In this document: positions 9,463 to 21,254 of the stretch, one piece after another | Numbering within the stretch: the stretch's first letter is position 1 | Layout of the letters: the number at the start of each line of letters is the position of its first letter | From: Planctomycetota bacterium | GTDB taxonomy: Bacteria > Planctomycetota > B15-G4 > JADJEK01 | Direction of reading: 5' to 3' | NCBI GenBank assembly: GCA_044225365.1 | Contig: JBGAIQ010000015.1 | Location: forward strand, 65,449 to 129,448 | DNA: 64,000 nucleotides | Translations under genes and position numbers: made by a program | The notes under the pieces: generated by a model | Database searches by the model: none | Told to the model about the DNA's origin: nothing | Seen by the model: only the letters and a program-made list of their open reading frames with translations

Positions 9463-10788
9463 TCAGTCCTCGTTCGTCATCAGGTGCGAAGCATCGGGCT
9501 CGCGGGTGAGCCGCCTCGCAAGGCGATCGCGCAGGGACTCGATCGTGAGTCGATCGAGGATCTCGTTCGCGAAGGCATAGGTCAGGAGGTCGCGCGCGGT
9601 CGCGACGGCGATGCCGCGGCTGCGCAGGTAGAAGAGCGCCGTCTCGTCGATCTGTCCGATCGTCGAACCGTGCGAGCATTTCACGTCGTCGGCGAGGATC
9701 TCGAGCTGCGGCGTGCTGTTGCACAGCGCTTCGTTCGACGTGAGCAGGTTGTTGTTCTCCTGCGCGGACGAGGTCTTCTGCGCGTCCTTGCGGACCAGGA
9801 TGCGGCCGAAGAACGTTCCGCGGCTCTTGCCGCCGAGCACACCTTTGTAGTGCTCGCGCGACGTGGTGTGCGGAACGGCGTGATCGATCACCGTGTAGTG
9901 GTCGTGCTGCTTCGCTCCGTCGAGGACGTAGAGACCGTCGATCTCGCAGCTCGCGCCTTGGCCGAGCAGCGTGACGTACAGCGAGTGGCGATGGAACGCG
10001 CCGCCGAGCGACACGACGAGCGAGCGATAGTTCGAGTCGCGACCGGTCTGGTGTACGCGGGTCGCGGCGATGTGGACCACGTCCGTGTGCTCGTCGCCGA
10101 CCGTCACGTGTTCGAGATTCGCGCCGTCGGCGAGTTCGACGTCGACGACGACGTTGGCGAAGGACGCGCCTCCGCCCTCGGAGATGTGCTGCTCCACGAT
10201 CGTGGCCTTCGAGTTGGCGCCCGCGATCACGATCACGCGCGTGTGCTGCGCGATGCCGCCGCCGCTCGTCGACGACACGATCTCGATCGGCGACTCGATC
10301 GCGGCGTTCGCGTCGATCGTGACGACGACGCCATCGGTGAACATCGCGGTGTTCAGCGCCGAGAAGGAGTGGTCGCGCGGACTGGGCGCGCCGAGGAAGC
10401 GCTCGAGTCGCGCGCCGTTGTCGAGCACGGCGGTGGCGAGGGATTCGATACGCAGGCCGGGCACTTTGGTCCCGAGCCCACTCGAGAGTGGGGGTGCTGC
10501 CACACGACCGTCGATCAGGACGATTCGAAGCGATCCTTCGGTGCCGACCGCGGGCGGAAGGTCGGCGGTGGTCGCTTTGCTCGTGAGCTGCGACGCGAGC
10601 GGCAGCTTGGTGAACAAGGCGGCGTTCGCGTAGCGCCACGCCTCCAGCTTGCGCGTGGGAAGGCCCGCTTCGACGAAGAACGCATGAGCGTCCTCGCGAG
10701 CCTTCGTCAGCCACGCGGGCTCCTTGCCGCGGACGAACGCGAGCCACTTCGAGAAGTCGAGCGCGGCGTGTTCCTTCACGTCGTTCAT
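9463..10788 (-). CDS. sufD: Fe-S cluster assembly protein SufD
   Basis: EAWRY, PQLEILADDVKCSHG and FYLRSRGI motifs. Confidence 0.93.
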   Translation of the reverse strand: MNDVKEHAALDFSKWLAFVRGKEPAWLTKAREDAHAFFVEAGLPTRKLEAWRYANAALFTKLPLASQLTSKATTADLPPAVGTEGSLRIVLIDGRVAAPPLSSGLGTKVPGLRIESLATAVLDNGARLERFLGAPSPRDHSFSALNTAMFTDGVVVTIDANAAIESPIEIVSSTSGGGIAQHTRVIVIAGANSKATIVEQHISEGGGASFANVVVDVELADGANLEHVTVGDEHTDVVHIAATRVHQTGRDSNYRSLVVSLGGAFHRHSLYVTLLGQGASCEIDGLYVLDGAKQHDHYTVIDHAVPHTTSREHYKGVLGGKSRGTFFGRILVRKDAQKTSSAQENNNLLTSNEALCNSTPQLEILADDVKCSHGSTIGQIDETALFYLRSRGIAVATARDLLTYAFANEILDRLTIESLRDRLARRLTREPDASHLMTNED

Positions 10789-10795
10789 CGCTGCC

Positions 10796-11557
<762 letters not shown>

Positions 11558-11583
11558 GGAGTCATCCAATCCTTGTTCCATTC

Positions 11584-11642
11584 GTAGGGGCAGACGGCTG
11601 TCTGCCCGCCGTTGATCCGGGCGCACAGCCGTGCGCCCCTAC
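11584..11642. repeat. GTAG-type REP doublet (inverted pair) between sufB and sufC
   Basis: GTAGGGGCAGACGGCTGTCTGCCC (11584-11607) and inverted GGGCGCACAGCCGTGCGCCCCTAC (11619-11642), each an internal palindrome with a GTAG foot. Confidence 0.75.
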
Positions 11643-11671
11643 GGCGTCGAGCTCCGCAACGGGTGAAACGA

Positions 11672-13117
<1,446 letters not shown>

Positions 13118-13122
13118 GGGAT

Positions 13123-13608
13123 TCACCTCACCGGAAGAGCACGCTGGCTCGCGTCGGCGCGCACTCCGAGCGTGAGCGGACCCGCCATCTGCGCAAGACT
13201 GATCTCGGAGAGGGCCGCGTGGACGACTCGGTTGATCGTCTGCCAATTGCTCTTCACGGCGCACATCGCCACGATCGAGCAATTGACGGCTTCATTGTTG
13301 GTGCACTCGGTGATCGAGATCGGACCTTCGACGGCGGCGACGATGTCGGCGACGGAGATCGCGTCAGGGGTCCGAGCGAGACGGTAGCCGCCCTTCACTC
13401 CGCGGGTCGAGGTGAGCAGGCCGTCGCGGCCGAGGAGCTTCAGGATCTTGCCGACCATCGGCTCGGGAAGATGAACATGGGCCGCGAGGTCACGGGCGTT
13501 GTAGACCGGGGGCGATCCGTCGACGCCGTCGCGCGAGTGATGCGCGAAGTACGTGAGCAGCACGATCGCGTAGTCCGCTTGGCGCGTCATCCGAAGCATG
13601 CGATTCAC
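13123..13608 (-). CDS. Rrf2-family SUF system regulator (start may be 13599)
   Basis: [19 protein letters not shown] and three Cys (ECT..NC...MC); first gene of suf operon. Confidence 0.9.
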
Positions 13609-13744: not shown

Positions 13745-14443
13745 TCAGGCTCCGGGGCGCAGGTTCCGTCCGCGACCCGACATGAAGAAGTCAAAGAGCA
13801 GAGAGGCCTTCTCGCCGGTGAGGGCGCCCTTGCGAGCCATGACGAGATCGAGAGTCGCCGGATCGAGATCGACGATCGCCATGGTGCGGTTGCGGAAGGT
13901 GTTGAAAGTCTCCTCCGACTTGGGGCCGAGTGCCTTCGTGTCGACGATCTGGCCGTGGATCGACTTGGCGAGTTCCGCCGCGGCCGTGTTGCCCTTATCG
14001 GCGGCCTTGAAGATCGTGCCGTAGGCGGTGTCGAGCGTCCAAACGTATTCATCGAACGACATTCGGATCGCCCGGAGCTCGGTCTCGAGTTCGATCGGGA
14101 TGTGCTTCATCTTCTCGATGGCGTCCTTGAACGTGTCGATCATCTCGCCCACGTCCGGACGGCCGCCGTTTTCCAGGTCCTGGAAGCTCTTCAATGTATC
14201 GCTCGCACCCTGCGCGACCCGCGAGCGGATCGCGATCACTTGATCGAGCTTGGCGGCGTCGAGCTTCGAGGTGGGCGGTTTGGTGAAGGGGAAGTCCTTG
14301 TTCGTCGTTTCGAGCTGCTTGAAAGACGCCTCGAGCTCCTTGCTGACGTCGATCGACTTCTTCACGACGTAGCTGCAAAAGCCGATCATCAAGATCAACC
14401 CCACGACCACGATTCCGCCGACGACGGCGAGACAACCCTTCAT
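13745..14443 (-). CDS. Hypothetical single-pass membrane protein
   Basis: MKGCLAVVGG N-terminal hydrophobic helix, GAGGAG RBS, typical codon usage. Confidence 0.75.
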   Translation of the reverse strand: MKGCLAVVGGIVVVGLILMIGFCSYVVKKSIDVSKELEASFKQLETTNKDFPFTKPPTSKLDAAKLDQVIAIRSRVAQGASDTLKSFQDLENGGRPDVGEMIDTFKDAIEKMKHIPIELETELRAIRMSFDEYVWTLDTAYGTIFKAADKGNTAAAELAKSIHGQIVDTKALGPKSEETFNTFRNRTMAIVDLDPATLDLVMARKGALTGEKASLLFDFFMSGRGRNLRPGA

Positions 14444-14645
14444 GATGCACTCCTCGAGCTTTCGAACGAACCTGCGCGGCGTGAATCGACGCGGCAAGGA
14501 CCCAGCATAGCGAGGACTCGGAAAAGTCGAAACGCCGCGACGATTCGACGCTTCTAATGAGCCGCTGCGGTCGCAACCCTACGTCGATCAACGAAGAGGG
14601 ATTCACCCGAAACCCGGGCCGCGATTCGCGACGGAGACTCGCAGC

Positions 14646-15239
14646 ATGGCACAGACAGTTCGGATCCTCGCATTTGCTGGAGCGGCGCGACGCGATTCGT
14701 GGAACAAGAAGCTTCTCGCGGTCGCGGTTCAAGGCGCGCGGGATGCCGGCGCCGAGGTCACGATCTACGACTTCGCGGAGTTTCCGCTTCCGCTCTACGA
14801 CGGGGATCTGGAGGCCGCGGGCGGCCTTCCCCCCAACGCGAAGAAGTTCAAGTCGCTGATGCGCGAACATCACGGCTTGCTGATCGCCTGCCCGGAGTAC
14901 AACAGCTCGATCACTCCGTTGCTGAAGAACGCGATCGATTGGGCGTCGCGCCCCGAGAGCCCCGACGGCAAACCGGAACCGCCGCTCGTCGCCTACCAGA
15001 ACAAGGTGGCCGGCCTCGTCGCCGCGTCCCCCGGTGCGCTCGGCGGCTTGCGCGGCCTCCGCCACGTCCGCGAGATCCTGTCGAACATCAACGTCCTCGT
15101 GCTCCCGCAGCAGTTCGCACTCAGCAAGGCGAACGAAGCCTTCGACGCCGCGGGCAAGCTGATCGACCCGAAAGCCGAATCCTCGGTGAAGGCCGTCGCA
15201 GCGAAGCTGGTAGCGACGACCTCCCGCCTCCTCGTCTGA
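14646..15239 (+). CDS. NADPH-dependent FMN reductase / flavodoxin-fold oxidoreductase
   Basis: PEYNSSITPLLKNAIDWASR and SPGALGGLRG motifs. Confidence 0.92.
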   Translation: MAQTVRILAFAGAARRDSWNKKLLAVAVQGARDAGAEVTIYDFAEFPLPLYDGDLEAAGGLPPNAKKFKSLMREHHGLLIACPEYNSSITPLLKNAIDWASRPESPDGKPEPPLVAYQNKVAGLVAASPGALGGLRGLRHVREILSNINVLVLPQQFALSKANEAFDAAGKLIDPKAESSVKAVAAKLVATTSRLLV

Positions 15240-15276
15240 AACGACGGTCACGGACCGCGTCCGCCGCCGCCAACCC

Positions 15277-15414
15277 CGGCGGTTACGGATCGCAGCCGCC
15301 GCCGCCAGAAACCGGCGGTGACGGATCGCAGCCAAAACCGCCGGAACCGGCGGCGACGGATCGCAGCCAAAACCGCCGGAACCGGCGGTGACGGATCGCA
15401 GCCGCCGCCGCCAG
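15277..15414. repeat. About four tandem ~35-bp palindromic units between convergent genes
   Basis: Unit CGGCGG(T/C)GACGGATCGCAGCC(AAAA/GCCG)CCGCC(G/A)GAAC repeated directly, with no unique spacers. Confidence 0.75.
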
Positions 15415-15421
15415 CATGGCG

Positions 15422-16570
15422 TCAGCGTACTTCCTTCGGCTTCTTCGCGGGGGTGACGGCGGGGGCGGACTCCGCTTCGTTCACGAGTGTTTCGATCGCT
15501 TCGTCGAGGGACTCCTCGCTCGGGTCGAGGAAGCGGATCACATGCTGGGCGTCGAGCAGGTAGACGGTGGGATACGCGCTCACGTTGAATCGGCGCGCGA
15601 TCGGCCCGCCGGTCGAGCCCTCGCAGAACGATCGCCAGGTGACCTGCTGCGAAGCGAGATTCGACTTCAGCTTGTCATCGATCTTGTCGGTGTTGATGCC
15701 GAGAATGACGAACGGACGGTCCTTGTACTTCTCCACGAGCGACCGCTCGTGCGGGATCATGGCCCGGCAAGGGCCTCACCAGAATCCCCAGAAATCGAGC
15801 ATCACCACTTTGCCCTTGTAGTCGGCGAGCTGGAACCCGACGCCATCGACGTCCTTGCCCTCGATCGGCGGGCAGGGCTTGCCGGCGACGAGATGGTCGA
15901 GCGCGAAGAGGGCCTGCTCCGCCGCTTCCCCAAGCGTGCCGCGCGAAGTCTTGACGTCGGCATACTCCTTCACGACCTTCTCGTACTCGGCGTGCGCCGC
16001 GGCAAGTTTCGCAGCGTCGTCCACAGCGGTCCATTTGTGGCTCGATGCCATCGCAAGGAGTGCCTTGCCGCGAACGGACCGCACGCTCGACTTCTCGATC
16101 ATCGCGACGAGCAAGCGCTCGGTCGGGCCCTGCGCGCCGTAGGAATATCGCGCCGCGAGGCCGCCGATCCGCTCGTCGTCGAGGTGATCCCGGATCAGGC
16201 GATCGACGACCGCGGAGAGATCACTCTCGCCGCGCGCCACGCTGATGGCGAAGAACAGCGCGTCGTACGCGTCGGGCGACTTCGAGCACTTCTCCGCGAT
16301 CGCCATCGCCCGATCGAAGTACGACTTGTCGTCGGGCGCCAGCTTGCGCGCGGCGTCGCCGCGCTCCTCGTCGGTCTTCGCCGCCTCGATGGCTTCCCGT
16401 TGCCGGGAGAGCGCGGCATTGTATTCCTCGCGCAACGCGGCGATCGCCTTGGCGGCGTCGGTCGTCTGAGCGGCAACGGGAGCGGCGTCCTGCGCCTGCG
16501 CGCGAGGCGCCGACGCGAGCGGTAGAGCGAGCACGAGTGCTGCGCGGAAGAGGGATCGAGAGAGCTTCAT
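15422..16570 (-). CDS. Exported TlpA/thioredoxin-like protein with in-frame UGA (UGPC motif), probable selenoprotein
   Basis: ORFs 15776..16570 and 15422..15760 are in the same frame; the join reads DFWGFW-TGA-GPCRAMIPHER; N-terminal signal peptide. Confidence 0.85.
15734..15775 (-). promoter_or_regulatory. Putative bacterial SECIS element (copy 1)
   Basis: 3' of the UGA: GGCCC-UUGCC-GGGCC hairpin, then CACGAGC-GGUC-GCUCGUG; apical loop starts with G, 31 nt after the UGA. Confidence 0.65.
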
Positions 16571-16675
16571 GGATCTTCACGGCCTCCAAGAACATGCCGT
16601 ATCGCGCGACATCCGACGGCACTCGAGCGCAACCCCAGCGAGATGACGCCTGCGGGCTCCACGGATGATAACACG

Positions 16676-16721
16676 CCAAACGAAACCACCGGCGGGATCG
16701 CGCAGGGCGTTCCCGCCGGTG
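16676..16721 (-). terminator. Rho-independent terminator after TlpA copy 2
   Basis: Stem CACCGGCGGGA/TCCCGCCGGTG followed on the minus strand by GTTTCGTTT. Confidence 0.6.
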
Positions 16722-16757
16722 TTCACCGGAATCGGTGCAGATCGCGATGTCGCGCGA

Positions 16758-17915
16758 TCATTCGCCCGATTTCGATTTTGCCTTGTCGTCTGCGCTTTTC
16801 GCCTTGGATCCGGGATCGGGCGCCTTGCCCTCCGCTTCGGCGATCACCTGATCGAGGAGCTTCTCATCCGGCGACCCGTGACCCTTCCAGCGGATCTTCC
16901 GGTCCTTGTCGAGCAGGTACACCGTCGGCCAGCCCTGGACGTTGAACTGGGTGGCGATCGGTCCGCTCGTGCTTCCTTCGAAGAAGGAGCGCCAGGTGAT
17001 GTTCTCTTTCTTCTGCGCGTCGATCAGCGTCTGCTTCTTCTCATCGCTGTTGACGCCGAGGATGACGAAAGGCTTGTCCTTCAATCTTTCCACGAGCGAC
17101 CGCTCGTGTGGGATCATGGCCCGGCAAGGGCCTCACCAGAAGCCCCAGAAGTCGAGCATCACCACCTTTCCCTTGTAGTCGGCGAGTGAGAACTTCACTC
17201 CGTCGACGTCGCTGCCGGAGATCTCGGGACACACGCTGCCGATACCGAGGTTCTCGAGCTCGTACACCGCCTTGCGTGCGATATCGCCGAGTCGACCCAT
17301 CGGGGATTTGATCCCCGAGTAGTTCTCGATCACGTCGTTGTAGAGGTCGATCGCCTGCTTCTGGAGCGTGGCGTCGCCCGTGTTCTCCGACTGTTCCTTC
17401 AGCCCCTCGGCCTTGCGGAACGTCGCCTTGCCCTTCACGGAGTCGTGCGGGCTCTTGGCGATGAGCGCGTCGCACAGCTTGTCGGCGGGCGGCCCGTAGA
17501 CGACCATCGACGCGTCTCCCAGGGATTCGCTCGCGATGTAGTCCGCGATCAGCGTATCGATGATCGTCGCAGACGTCTTCGGATCCTGGCTGAGTTCGAG
17601 CGCCCAGACGAGCGCGCTCGCGGCGATCTCCTGGCCCTTCGCGGCGTCGGCGATGGCGATCGCCTTCGTCGCGTATTCATCCGACTTCGGATACTTGGTT
17701 TCGATCAGTTTCTTGCGCTCGTCGTCGGTCGTAGCCTTCTGATACAGCTCGCTGAATGCGTTTTGCGCATCCGAGAACTGCTTCTGCAGCGCAGCGAGAT
17801 CGGCCGCCGGGTCGCCGATTCGGGCGAACACCAGAGGCTGCAGCAGGGGAGGCGTAGCGACCGCGCCCGGCGCGAGCAGAGTGCTCGTGATGCCGATCGC
17901 GAACAAGAGGGTCAT
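16758..17915 (-). CDS. Exported TlpA/thioredoxin-like protein with in-frame UGA (UGPC motif), probable selenoprotein, paralog 2
   Basis: ORFs 17133..18011 and 16758..17117 are in frame; DFWGFW-TGA-GPCRAMIPHER; AGGAG RBS before ATG 17915. Confidence 0.85.
17091..17132 (-). promoter_or_regulatory. Putative bacterial SECIS element (copy 2)
   Basis: Same double hairpin as copy 1; 43 of 44 nt after the UGA are identical. Confidence 0.65.
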
Positions 17916-18113
17916 TTTCGATTCTCCTTGTGAGTTGCAGCAGGCACCGGCATCGTCCGCTTTCCCGAGGCAGGGGTCAAGGGAACTCGAACCGTCTTCT
18001 CCGGCTGTCAACCGGGCCGAACTGCGCTACACTTCATCGATCGGCTCCCGCGCCTCGGCACCCTGCGCGGACTCCCCTTCCCACTCGAAATCGTTCGCTC
18101 TCGGAGAAACTGG

Positions 18114-21100
18114 ATGCGTTCCCAAATCGCTCCGCTCGGCGCGATCCTGGTCGTTGCATGCGCAGGCATCGCATCGGCTCAGGGTTCGTTCGTCAATTTC
18201 GAATCGCCGCACGTCCATCCCCTCGAACTCACTCCTGACGGCACGCGGCTGCTCGCCGTGAATACCGCCGACAATCGGCTCGAGGTCTTCGCCGTATTAC
18301 CCGCGCAGCTCGCGCACATCGGTTCGGTACCCGTCGGACTCGATCCCACCTCGGTGCGTGCGCGGAGCAACGGCGAAGCCTGGGTCGTGAATCATCTCTC
18401 CGACTCGGTCTCCGTCGTCGACCTCGCGACGCTGCGGGTTCGCGCGACGTTCAAGACCCAGGACGAGCCCAATGACGTGGCCTTCGCCGGCACGACCACG
18501 TCCCGCGCCTTCGTATCTTCCGCGACGGAGAACACCGTGTCGGTGTTCGATCCGAACAATCTGACGGCAGCGCCGACCCTCGTCCCGATCTTCGGCGTCG
18601 CGCCGCGCGCGATCGCCGTGTCGAGTGACTTCAAGAAGGTCTACGTCGCGATCTTCGATTCCGGCAATCAGTCGACGGTGCTCGGCGGCGGCGGGACGAT
18701 GGCGAACGTGTTCCCGCCCAACGTGGTCTCCAATCCCGCGGGTCCCTACGGCGGGCAGAACCCGCCGCCGAATGCGGGCAACGCGTTCAATCCACCGATC
18801 GCCGCGGGCCTCCCCGCGCCGCCGAAGGTCGGCCTGATCGTGAAGAAGGACGCGACGGGCAAGTGGATGGACGACAACGCGCACGACTGGACTGCGCTCG
18901 TCTCCGGCAACAATGCATCGCTCTCTGGACGTCCGGTCGGCTGGGACCTCCCCGACCACGACGTCGCCGTGATCGACGCCGACTCGCTCGGGCTCACCTA
19001 CGCCGATCACCTGATGAATCTCGACATGGCGCTCGCGGTGAATCCGGCGAACGGCGAAGTCGTCGTCGTCGGCACCGAAGCGACGAACGAGATCCGCTTC
19101 GAGCCGAACCTCAAGGGCAAGTTCGTCCACGTCGTCGGTTCGCGCATCACGTCGTCCGGAGCGTTCGTCGCGACGAAGGACCTCAATCCGCACCTGACGT
19201 ACGGCGTGTCGAGCATTCCGCAGAGCGATCGCGACAAGTCACTCGGCGATCCGCGCGGAGTCGCGTTCAGCGCGAACGGATCTCGCGTCTTCGTGACGGG
19301 CATGGGTAGCAACAACCTCGTCGCCTTCGACAGCACGCTCACGCGGGTCGGCACCACCGCGACGACGACGATCCCGGTCGGCGAAGGACCGACCGGCGTC
19401 GTGGCGCATCCGCTGACCGGCATGGTCTTCGTGCTCAACAAGTTCGAAGGCAGCGTGTCGTGCGTCGATCCTGTCGCGCAGAAGGAAGTGGATCGCACCG
19501 CGCTCGCGTTCGATCCCACGCCGTCCGTCATCAAGGTCGGCCGCAAGCATCTCTACGACACGCACAAGAACTCCGGTCTCGGCCAGATCGCGTGCGCGTC
19601 GTGTCACATCGACGCCCGCATCGACCACCTCGCGTGGGACCTCGGCGATCCCTCCGGCGCGATGAAGGCGACGACGGGCCAAAACCTCGGCGCCAACGTC
19701 CCCGGCCTCAACACGGGATTCCAGCCGTGGCACCCGATGAAGGGCCCGATGACGACGCAGTCGCTGCAGGACATCGTCGGCAAGGAGCCCCTGCATTGGC
19801 GCGGCGATCGCGCGGGTCTCGAGGAGTTCGCGCCCGCGTTCAAGAATCTGCAGGGCGATGACGTCCAGCTCTTGCCTGCGGAAATGCAGGAGTTCGAGGA
19901 CTTCATCGCGTCCATCCACTACCCGCCGAATCCGTATCGCAACTTCGACAACACGCTGACGACCGCGATGAATACCGGCGTGAAGTCGAACGGCCGCTTC
20001 TCGCCAAAGGGCACGGCCTTGCCGGTCGGCAACGCGCAGCACGGTGCGACCATCTATCGTCCGCCCACATTGCTCGATGCTGCGGCGATCGCATGCTCGT
20101 CATGCCACACCCTGCCCGTTGGCATCGGCACGAACAGCAAGCTCGTGGGCTTCGCGTTCCAGCCGATCGCGACGGGACCGAATGGAGAACTCCATCACAT
20201 GCTCGTGTCGCAGGACGGCAATACGAACATCACGATGAAGGTTCCGCAGCTTCGGAACATGTACGAGAAGCGCGGCTTCGATACCAACCTGACTTCGAAC
20301 GTGGCCGGATTCGGCTACCTGCACGATGGGTCGGTCGACACGCTCGCCTCGTTCCTGTCCGAGCCGGTGTTCAATCCGGGCGGCGATCAGGACCTCGCCG
20401 ACCTCGTCGCGTTCCTCTTCCAGTTCGCGGGTTCCGACCTCGCGTACGGCGGCTCGATCCTCGAACCGCCCGCAACCTCGGCGAAGGACGCGCATGCAGC
20501 CGTCGGACAGCAGACGACTCTCATCGATTCGGGAACGCCCGCTGCGGGCCAACTCGCACTCATCGATCAGATGGTCACGGTCGCGAACACGAACAAGGTC
20601 GGACTCGTCGTGAAGGGCATCCAGGGCGGCCTGGCGCGCGGGTACTACTACGTCGGCGGCAACTCGTTCCAGAGCGATCGCTCGACGGAGACGCGCACGG
20701 TCGCGCAGTTGAAGTCTTCGGCGGCGCCGGGATCCGAGCTCACCTTCACCGTGGTGCCGTTCGAATCGCGCGTCCGCATCGGCGTCGATCGCGACGAGGA
20801 TGGCTGGTTCGATCGCGACGAGATCGACGCGCTCACGAATCCGAACGATCCGACGAACTACCCGGGATGCGGATCGGCGCTCGCGTACGGCCAGGGTTGT
20901 CCAGGCTCGGGCAATCGCATTCCACGGGTCCAGGTCACGGGCTGTCTGAAGCAGAACGGCAACGTCGTGTTCACGCTCGACAAGGGCAATCCGAATGCCC
21001 TCGCTCTCCTCGTGTTCGGCCTGACGCAGGCGGCGCAACCGATCGGCGGCGGTTGTTATCTCAACGTCGCCCCGATGCTCCCGCCGCTCGTCGGTCCGTT

Positions 21101-21254
21101 CCCGCTCGACGCGAACGGCTCGATCTCGTTCCCCGCAGCGATTCCGGCGGGAGTGGGAGCGGGCGTCGTCACGATGCAGGGCATCGTCCAGGATGCAGGC
21201 GTGCCGATCGGCTTCACGACGACGAACGGCCTGCAGCTCACGTTCTCGCCCTGA
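18114..21254 (+). CDS. Secreted YVTN/YncE beta-propeller fused to di-heme cytochrome c (CcP/MauG-like) domain, with C-terminal domain
   Basis: Signal peptide; VPVGLDP and IPVGEGP blades; CASCH and CSSCH heme motifs; KVPQLRN...YLHDGS. Confidence 0.8.
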   Translation: MRSQIAPLGAILVVACAGIASAQGSFVNFESPHVHPLELTPDGTRLLAVNTADNRLEVFAVLPAQLAHIGSVPVGLDPTSVRARSNGEAWVVNHLSDSVSVVDLATLRVRATFKTQDEPNDVAFAGTTTSRAFVSSATENTVSVFDPNNLTAAPTLVPIFGVAPRAIAVSSDFKKVYVAIFDSGNQSTVLGGGGTMANVFPPNVVSNPAGPYGGQNPPPNAGNAFNPPIAAGLPAPPKVGLIVKKDATGKWMDDNAHDWTALVSGNNASLSGRPVGWDLPDHDVAVIDADSLGLTYADHLMNLDMALAVNPANGEVVVVGTEATNEIRFEPNLKGKFVHVVGSRITSSGAFVATKDLNPHLTYGVSSIPQSDRDKSLGDPRGVAFSANGSRVFVTGMGSNNLVAFDSTLTRVGTTATTTIPVGEGPTGVVAHPLTGMVFVLNKFEGSVSCVDPVAQKEVDRTALAFDPTPSVIKVGRKHLYDTHKNSGLGQIACASCHIDARIDHLAWDLGDPSGAMKATTGQNLGANVPGLNTGFQPWHPMKGPMTTQSLQDIVGKEPLHWRGDRAGLEEFAPAFKNLQGDDVQLLPAEMQEFEDFIASIHYPPNPYRNFDNTLTTAMNTGVKSNGRFSPKGTALPVGNAQHGATIYRPPTLLDAAAIACSSCHTLPVGIGTNSKLVGFAFQPIATGPNGELHHMLVSQDGNTNITMKVPQLRNMYEKRGFDTNLTSNVAGFGYLHDGSVDTLASFLSEPVFNPGGDQDLADLVAFLFQFAGSDLAYGGSILEPPATSAKDAHAAVGQQTTLIDSGTPAAGQLALIDQMVTVANTNKVGLVVKGIQGGLARGYYYVGGNSFQSDRSTETRTVAQLKSSAAPGSELTFTVVPFESRVRIGVDRDEDGWFDRDEIDALTNPNDPTNYPGCGSALAYGQGCPGSGNRIPRVQVTGCLKQNGNVVFTLDKGNPNALALLVFGLTQAAQPIGGGCYLNVAPMLPPLVGPFPLDANGSISFPAAIPAGVGAGVVTMQGIVQDAGVPIGFTTTNGLQLTFSP

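Follow-up and report, generated by a model that had tools for sequence, protein, structure and literature searches.

The minus strand of the stretch analyzed here, a 64,000-nucleotide window from a Planctomycetota genome (contig JBGAIQ010000015.1), contains two tandem paralogous genes, which we call A and B (Table 1). Each is crossed by one in-frame TGA codon, located where thioredoxin-fold proteins of the TlpA type carry the nucleophilic cysteine of their WCxxC motif. The initial annotation had placed a TGA at this catalytic position in both copies and had proposed that they encode selenoproteins; the position was confirmed in both genes. With U denoting the predicted selenocysteine (Sec), the active-site stretch of A and B reads ...YKGKVVMLDFWGFW-U-GPCRAMIPHERSLVE..., with FWGFW-U-GPCRAMIPHER at its center, and the tryptic context of the residue is VVMLDFWGFW-U-GPCR in both genes. 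Beyond the TGA, the frames stay open to the terminal TGA, passing through YPTVYLLD in A and WPTVYLLD in B, with no further stops or frameshifts. An ATG lies exactly 15 nucleotides (nt) past each in-frame TGA (open reading frames, ORFs, starting at 15760 and 17117). As had been predicted, gene callers split both genes at this point: the public collection holds four separate NCBI-sourced predicted proteins, of 264 and 112 amino acids (aa) for gene A and of 260 and 119 aa for gene B.

Table 1. Predicted genes, domains and signals of the A/B locus, in window coordinates
Feature	Position	Strand	Description
Gene A	16570..15422	minus	382 aa + TGA stop at 15422-15424; exported helical-repeat + TlpA-like thioredoxin-fold selenoprotein (predicted)
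Gene B	17915..16758	minus	385 aa + TGA stop at 16758-16760; paralogue of A, same architecture
In-frame TGA of gene A, predicted Sec265 (U265)	15776-15778	minus	first residue of the U-G-P-C active site
In-frame TGA of gene B, predicted Sec261 (U261)	17133-17135	minus	
Predicted SECIS hairpin, gene A	15734..15751	minus	offsets +27..+44 from the U of UGA (24 nt past the codon)
Predicted SECIS hairpin, gene B	17091..17108	minus	same 18 nt as in gene A
Predicted Sec-type signal peptide, gene A	16493..16570	minus	residues 1-26; K2/R5/R9, hydrophobic core, AQA/Q cleavage-site reading; by eye; low pLDDT at residues 1-30
All-helical TPR-like repeat domain, gene A	15893..16459	minus	residues 38-226, 10 helices; AlphaFold2 models and fold searches
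TlpA/ResA/DsbE-like thioredoxin-fold domain, gene A	15467..15886	minus	residues 229-368; Pfam, VIA-align, Foldseek
AAGGAG Shine-Dalgarno-like site	17924..17929	minus	8 nt upstream of the gene B ATG; read from sequence

Architecture of the read-through proteins

In the read-through translations, the Pfam families AhpC-TSA, Redoxin, Thioredoxin_8 and Thioredoxin all match residues ~225–353 of A and B above their gathering scores, with 64.2 and 66.2 bits for PF00578 (cut-off 26) and 51.2 and 60.9 bits for PF08534 (cut-off 26.6) in the two proteins. Because the AhpC-TSA, Redoxin and Thioredoxin_8 domains span the TGA (residues 230–347 in A and 225–343 in B), neither half alone would form a complete fold, in line with the earlier view that the downstream halves continue in frame and complete it.

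For the read-through product of gene A, AlphaFold2, given an alignment of 76 homologues, produced a model with a predicted local distance difference test score (pLDDT) of 91.6 and a predicted template modeling score (pTM) of 0.85. In this model, roughly the first 30 residues are disordered, and ten helices and then a thioredoxin fold follow. Compared by VIA-align, the modeled thioredoxin domain gave Z scores of 20.4 to 3gl3, 19.6 to 2f9s, 16.0 to 1kng and 15.0 to 1jfu, and superposed on DsbE, ResA, CcmG and TlpA with root-mean-square deviations of 1.7–2.3 over 128–136 residues, with Foldseek E-values of 1e-9 to 1e-7. True peroxiredoxins (AhpC/Prx/BCP) carry their peroxidatic cysteine in a PxxxT/SxxC motif rather than in a WCxxC dithiol motif. 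We considered a true peroxiredoxin as an identity for A and B and rejected it, given the DFWGFW-U-GPC site and the lower structural scores of peroxiredoxins (Z 13–16, versus 18–20 for DsbE and ResA).

The helical domain returned no Pfam match in gene A. Modeled alone with 29 orthologues, it reached a pLDDT of 95.5, and a Foldseek search with this domain found nothing at E ≤ 0.001, the best match being at 0.04 (designed repeats, 14-3-3). The best VIA-align scores were Z 9.5–8.7, to designed toroids, YfgM (8zht_B) and PilF (2fi7). Since a helical repeat needs a Z score higher than 9.5 for a match to carry meaning, we name the domain only "tetratricopeptide repeat (TPR)-like"; as modeled, it is a confidently predicted TPR-like helical repeat without a clear solved relative.

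Selenocysteine machinery and use of TGA in the genome

The genome (6.53 Mb in 103 contigs, 94% complete) was searched for the Sec machinery, as the initial annotation had suggested, and all four components are present above curated cut-offs. A tRNA-Sec scored 68.5 bits and was also called by ARAGORN as tRNA-SeC with anticodon tca, and SelA, SelB and SelD matched at 486.6, 346.5 and 361.5 bits. The selA and selD genes are adjacent (contig C90:85984-88375; L009, L018), and selD carries an in-frame TGA of its own, at SCAG-U-AAK, followed by a hairpin with CGUGA in its loop. TGA has not been reassigned in this genome, because it is the stop codon of 18 of the 19 confident ORFs checked over the first 31 kb of the window, SufBCD and genes A and B themselves among them.

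Further TGA-bearing thioredoxin-like genes lie elsewhere in the genome. A third paralogue with an in-frame TGA and the same downstream hairpin of 18 nt is found on contig C85 (67287-67880; L022). On contig C75 (51004-51147; L029), a separate thioredoxin-like gene encodes a YW-U-GPCKAG protein with a long helical C-terminal part, and has the hairpin UCAACC-AGUU-GGUUGA. A paralogue on contig C13 that had been flagged as containing one TGA proved to be a Cys form, with the TGA as its true stop.

Cysteine and TGA alternate at the catalytic column

We then compared homologues at the column occupied by the TGA, for which a Cys/UGA pairing had been expected. Among 120 database matches to gene A, 109 have CxxC at this column, ten break off at the residue just before it, and the motif is missing from one. 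The Cys forms mostly read WATW-C-GPCRAMIPHER and come under the names Gemmata, Gemmataceae and Frigoriglobus; in Gemmataceae DNA, the codon at the column is TGT or TGC. One of the ten truncated proteins is the window's own fragment and nine are foreign. The endings of such fragments just before the column are DFWGFW, GNW, GDW, GHW, SEF, NQF and SEY.

The same column looks different when genomes are searched in six frames, where TGA is not taken as an end. The order was represented by 42 genomes, 25 of which had a match at E ≤ 1e-20, and TGA lay inside 40 of the 46 matches, five being free of any stop and one having TAG only. Across the phylum, 201 genomes at least 85% complete were sampled; 44 of them had a match at E ≤ 1e-35, and 81 of the 84 matches contained TGA (two without a stop, one with TAG only); since the query was a Sec form, the E-value cut-offs behind both sets of counts favor its nearest relatives. 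By a motif check, TGA was verified at the CxxC column for 23 of the order's 42 genomes. Twenty regions, each taken from a different genome outside the family, contained 24 motif hits, of which 23 have TGA at the column and one (G128) has Cys. This recurrence at one column argues against an in-frame TGA that arose by chance. Cys control loci were retrieved through Cys-containing back-translated patterns, which return only Cys forms together with many generic TlpA proteins.

Protein searches thus meet mostly Cys, whereas six-frame genome searches meet almost only TGA. The record of Sec/Cys usage in this family is thus skewed in protein databases; if Sec is indeed the usual state, the Cys minority would dominate there as a result of gene callers splitting the Sec forms. 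When 1.84 billion cluster representatives were searched, 1,169 relatives appeared at E ≤ 1e-30. Among 145 new top matches, 138 have CxxC, three end right before the column, one each has W, F or R at it, and in one the motif was not found. The three with W, F or R are P0258, P0338 and P0339 (e.g., DFWGHW-W-GPCRAMYPH); the W of P0258 probably reflects a gene caller that, set to code 4/25, translated a TGA as Trp.

A conserved hairpin downstream of the UGA

In bacteria, the selenocysteine insertion sequence (SECIS) is a stem-loop shortly downstream of the UGA, with G or U in its apical loop. Both UGAs are followed by the same 18 nt, CACGAGC-GGUC-GCUCGUG, which would form a 7-bp stem closed by a GGUC loop and agree with this description. 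In the whole genome, this 18-mer occurs three times, each 27 nt after an in-frame TGA (A, B and the contig C85 paralogue), and the terminal TGA codons of A and B have no such hairpin.

The 18-mer is conserved beyond its coding role. It is identical in 35 of the 36 Sec forms, from within and outside the order, that encode HERSLV. Within the order, all 19 such forms share the same six codons, while nearby synonymous sites vary (V at −10, GTG in 11 and GTC in 8; R at −13, CGC in 9, CGG in 3 and CGA in 2). Outside the order, the 18-mer is identical in 16 of 17, and the other differs in its last base only. Across 27 aligned Sec forms, 87.3% of the cells pair, compared with 18–40% when the partners are slid. 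The hairpin was absent from all six Cys forms read (Gemmataceae, Isosphaeraceae, Gemmatales), which encode HEREMV, HERELV or HEKELV. As the Cys forms differ at these residues and lack the hairpin, the S-L of the Sec forms appears to be imposed by the RNA structure.

Variants of the element occur as well. In G005 and G022/G023, the stem is kept around a 6-nt loop (AAGGAG, AAGAAG). In two further loci (L144 in G045 and L145 in G104), the hairpin lies a few nucleotides further downstream and has a CGUGA loop (e.g., AGUCGCU-CGUGA-AGCGACU). The presence of CGUGA also in the loop behind the UGA of selD suggests that the SelB of this phylum may accept two interchangeable loop types.

Paralogy of A and B

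Genes A and B share 42% amino acid identity overall, with 31% (60/196) in the helical domain, 66% (81/122) in the thioredoxin domain and 46 of 51 positions around the active site. At the DNA level, identity is highest in the 48 nt that run from the TGA through the hairpin (46/48), against 71/90 upstream and 50/90 downstream. In a quick IQ-TREE analysis of 65 rows, A groups with B as its sister (SH-aLRT 97), each on a branch of ~0.8 changes per site. Being sisters on such long branches, they appear to stem from an old, lineage-specific duplication, with the TGA kept in both copies.

Clustered copies recur in other genomes: a tandem pair in G129, whose members are likewise sisters in the quick tree, a further tandem pair in G164, three copies within ~3 kb in G086, and two matches ~0.5 kb apart on one contig in G194, one of which was confirmed by the motif check. 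Cys forms (a Gemmatales clade, L051 and L159) are interspersed among Sec forms in the tree; because its backbone is poorly supported, we draw no direction of Sec/Cys change from it.

Decoding of the in-frame UGA

Taken together, the complete Sec machinery, the Cys/TGA pairing and the conserved SECIS-like hairpin support the selenoprotein reading proposed initially. We consider it highly probable (roughly 0.88), from the sequence evidence, that the in-frame UGA of A and of B is read as Sec and not as a stop, so that either gene yields a single full-length exported protein of ~380 residues.

Several observations weigh against this reading, most of them concerning the hairpin. Covariation in the stem is weak, since the stem is almost invariant: there is one double change (C-G to G-C in G022), and 101–143 of 500 shuffles reach the covariation measures. 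In single-sequence folding, the hairpin appears in the minimum free energy (MFE) and centroid structures of gene B and is missing from the MFE structure of gene A, and the z-scores of −1.9 and −1.3 are not significant. As single-sequence folding is unremarkable, the case for the hairpin rests on the comparative data. A search of window positions 15000–18500 against Rfam, with E-values up to 10, matched no SECIS family and gave only chance-level miRNA and snoRNA rows. The loop starts ~31 nt past the UGA, close to the distal limit of bacterial SECIS models. Some orthologues keep the TGA without the GGUC hairpin at +27, namely G027/G028/G029, which encode HEKEMV (L036, L039, L041), G017/G020/G021, which encode HEREMV (L048, L050, L052), and family f49 (L157, L158); because they lack this hairpin, their SECIS, if any, must differ. 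A last point touches the predicted architecture. The proposal of a signal peptide, a helical domain and a Sec-containing TlpA domain in ~380 aa holds for the lengths and for the helical and thioredoxin domains; the signal peptide of gene B, judged by eye, is less certain, its N-terminus being hydrophobic with no basic n-region.

The UGA could instead terminate translation, yielding two products per locus: a secreted helical-repeat protein ending in ...DFWGFW and a small protein initiated at the downstream ATG. This is how public annotation reads both loci, with all four fragments present, and the ATG placed 15 nt past each TGA is compatible with it. Such an N-terminal product, however, would hold only the first strand or strands of a thioredoxin fold, given that the Pfam domain of A crosses the TGA. 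The C-terminal product would be without the nucleophile, a signal peptide or a visible ribosome-binding site, and the methionine of the downstream ATG corresponds to the conserved M of CRAMIPHER in the Cys forms. The stop also falls on the exact catalytic column in 23 order genomes and beyond, while Cys homologues are full-length. We regard separate products as very improbable.

It is similarly hard to credit that near-cognate decoding, a suppressor or a reassigned code puts another residue, such as Trp or Cys, at the UGA. Readings of this kind do circulate, as the database representative with W at the column (WGHW-W-GPC, P0258) illustrates, though this one is probably a code-4/25 call. Against them stand the regular use of TGA as a stop in 18 of 19 ORFs, the full Sec machinery with a Sec-type SelD, and a hairpin that is conserved at the RNA level and absent from Cys forms; a Trp at the nucleophile position of CxxC would, moreover, abolish catalysis. 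Decay of Cys-type TlpA homologues into pseudogenes after a nonsense mutation can be practically dismissed: a single TGT/TGC-to-TGA change would give the pattern in one gene, but the same TGA persists in two paralogues separated by ~0.8 changes per site each, in the third copy on contig C85 and in dozens of genomes of the phylum, and the downstream frames are intact, with a thioredoxin part 66% identical between A and B, no other stops or frameshifts and halves that are not evolving neutrally. The original argument against decay, that the stop is kept in both copies despite strongly diverged N-terminal halves, therefore stands, with helical identity at 31%.

Under the selenoprotein reading, SelB-GTP carrying Sec-tRNA(Sec) would bind the hairpin on the translating mRNA and deliver Sec to the UGA, and the terminal TGA of each gene, having no hairpin, would terminate. 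After export through the general secretory pathway, the U-G-P-C site could act as a thiol:disulfide reductase, with the selenolate attacking a substrate disulfide (or sulfenate) and the cysteine at +3 resolving the mixed selenenylsulfide. The oxidized site might then be re-reduced by a membrane electron carrier of the CcdA/DsbD type; a DsbD_TM/CcdA gene is present on another contig of the genome (101 bits). The TPR-like N-terminal repeat may recruit a protein substrate. Of these steps, we infer export, the reductase direction, the electron donor and substrate recruitment.

Read in this way, four fragments mis-annotated as "hypothetical" would become two complete redox enzymes, which adds to the evidence for a sizeable hidden selenoproteome in this genome. 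The 18-nt hairpin is a defined candidate SECIS for Planctomycetota, and TGA-N24-CACGAGCGGTCGCTCGTG offers a simple and specific DNA signature for re-annotation. More tentatively, and with the odds slightly against so broad a claim, the helical-repeat plus W-U-G-P-C TlpA-like protein may represent a phylum-wide Planctomycetota family in which Sec is the usual state, tandem duplication has occurred repeatedly and two amino acids are set by the SECIS (R-S-L-V in Sec forms versus R-E-M/L-V in Cys forms). Current catalogues might hence under-count this family or lack it as a distinct one, together with a large set of exported Planctomycetota selenoproteins.

Relation to known selenoproteins and thioredoxin-fold families

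Selenoproteins with a UxxC thioredoxin fold have been catalogued since 2005–2006, and A and B would be further members, ordinary in kind. A 2006 tabulation includes a "Prx-like thiol:disulfide oxidoreductase" and a "Thiol:disulfide interchange protein" (table in PMC1794560), and the family table of a 2026 review lists UxxC families with PF00578 or PF13098 as well as a "UGC-containing TlpA" family (PMC13188914). With PF00578 and UxxC, A and B fit the description of the "Prx-like thiol:disulfide oxidoreductase" family in that table. They resemble it in their thioredoxin fold, in having a predicted Sec as the first residue of UxxC, in their Cys homologues and in PF00578 as the best match (64–66 bits); the likeness is one of description, and A and B differ in their length of ~380 aa and in the 190-residue TPR-like domain that precedes the thioredoxin fold. 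What adds interest to the pair is the predominance of Sec across the phylum in six-frame searches, the near-invariant 18-nt predicted SECIS with its imprint on the protein, and the uncharacterized TPR-like domain.

Among Cys-type proteins, A and B share the fold, the position of the W-C-x-x-C motif and a (here predicted) exported location with TlpA of Bradyrhizobium (1jfu), ResA of Bacillus (1su9/1st9/2f9s) and CcmG/DsbE (1kng, 2b1k, 3gl3), from which they differ by the predicted Sec in place of the nucleophilic Cys and by the extra N-terminal helical domain. They score below the equivalog cut-offs of all three, with ~50 versus 230 bits for TlpA (NF047696), 61–69 versus 170 for ResA (NF002854) and 26–39 versus 123 for DsbE (TIGR00385). 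Weak local matches at the active site link them to three NCBIfam entries, NF041054 (ResA-like WAxxUGC), NF041057 (Rcas_1661 thioredoxin-like (seleno)lipoprotein) and NF045694 (TsoB). They are members of none of these, scoring 28–33 versus 300, 15.9 versus 190 and 16–17 versus 805 bits, respectively, and their motif is W-U-G-P-C as opposed to the WAxxUGC of NF041054.

A further parallel, compared by description, comes from the planctomycete P1, for which a supplementary table (S9) of a 2016 study (PMC4807772) records two Sec candidates that are split and bear the name "thiol-disulfide isomerase-like thioredoxin". Like A and B, they are planctomycete genes, each spread over two adjacent gene identifiers; the table gives them a Cys homologue in Singulisphaera and, as a difference from A and B, records "SECIS present: no" by bSECISearch. 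The passages considered from the BSepDB paper (PMC13326102) do not name the A/B family.

Genomic neighborhood

A scan for promoters and terminators gave nothing above shuffled expectation, and no genes for cytochrome c maturation or Sco/Cox assembly were found among the neighbors. Genes sufB, sufC and sufD lie at 9463-13282 on the minus strand, the SufC of the window having its nearest matches in proteins labeled "Planctomycetes bacterium" (78% identity) and Gemmataceae (76%), and an FMN reductase at 14646-15239 on the plus strand converges on the 3′ end of gene A. Between sufB and the FMN reductase, a 250-aa ORF (13745-14497, minus strand) has a coding-like G+C content at third codon positions and no Pfam match. 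The gap between the FMN reductase and gene A is filled by five tandem copies of a GC-rich unit of ~35 nt (15238-15414, 81% matches), each containing inverted repeats of the type CCGCCGG..CCGGCGG. On the other side, divergent from gene B, an exported protein of 1046 aa is encoded on the plus strand (18114-21254). Its N-terminal part is a beta-propeller (Lactonase-like), and it shows a weak, sub-threshold match to di-haem cytochrome c peroxidase (CCP_MauG) together with CxxCH motifs, making it a possible redox neighbor of gene B.

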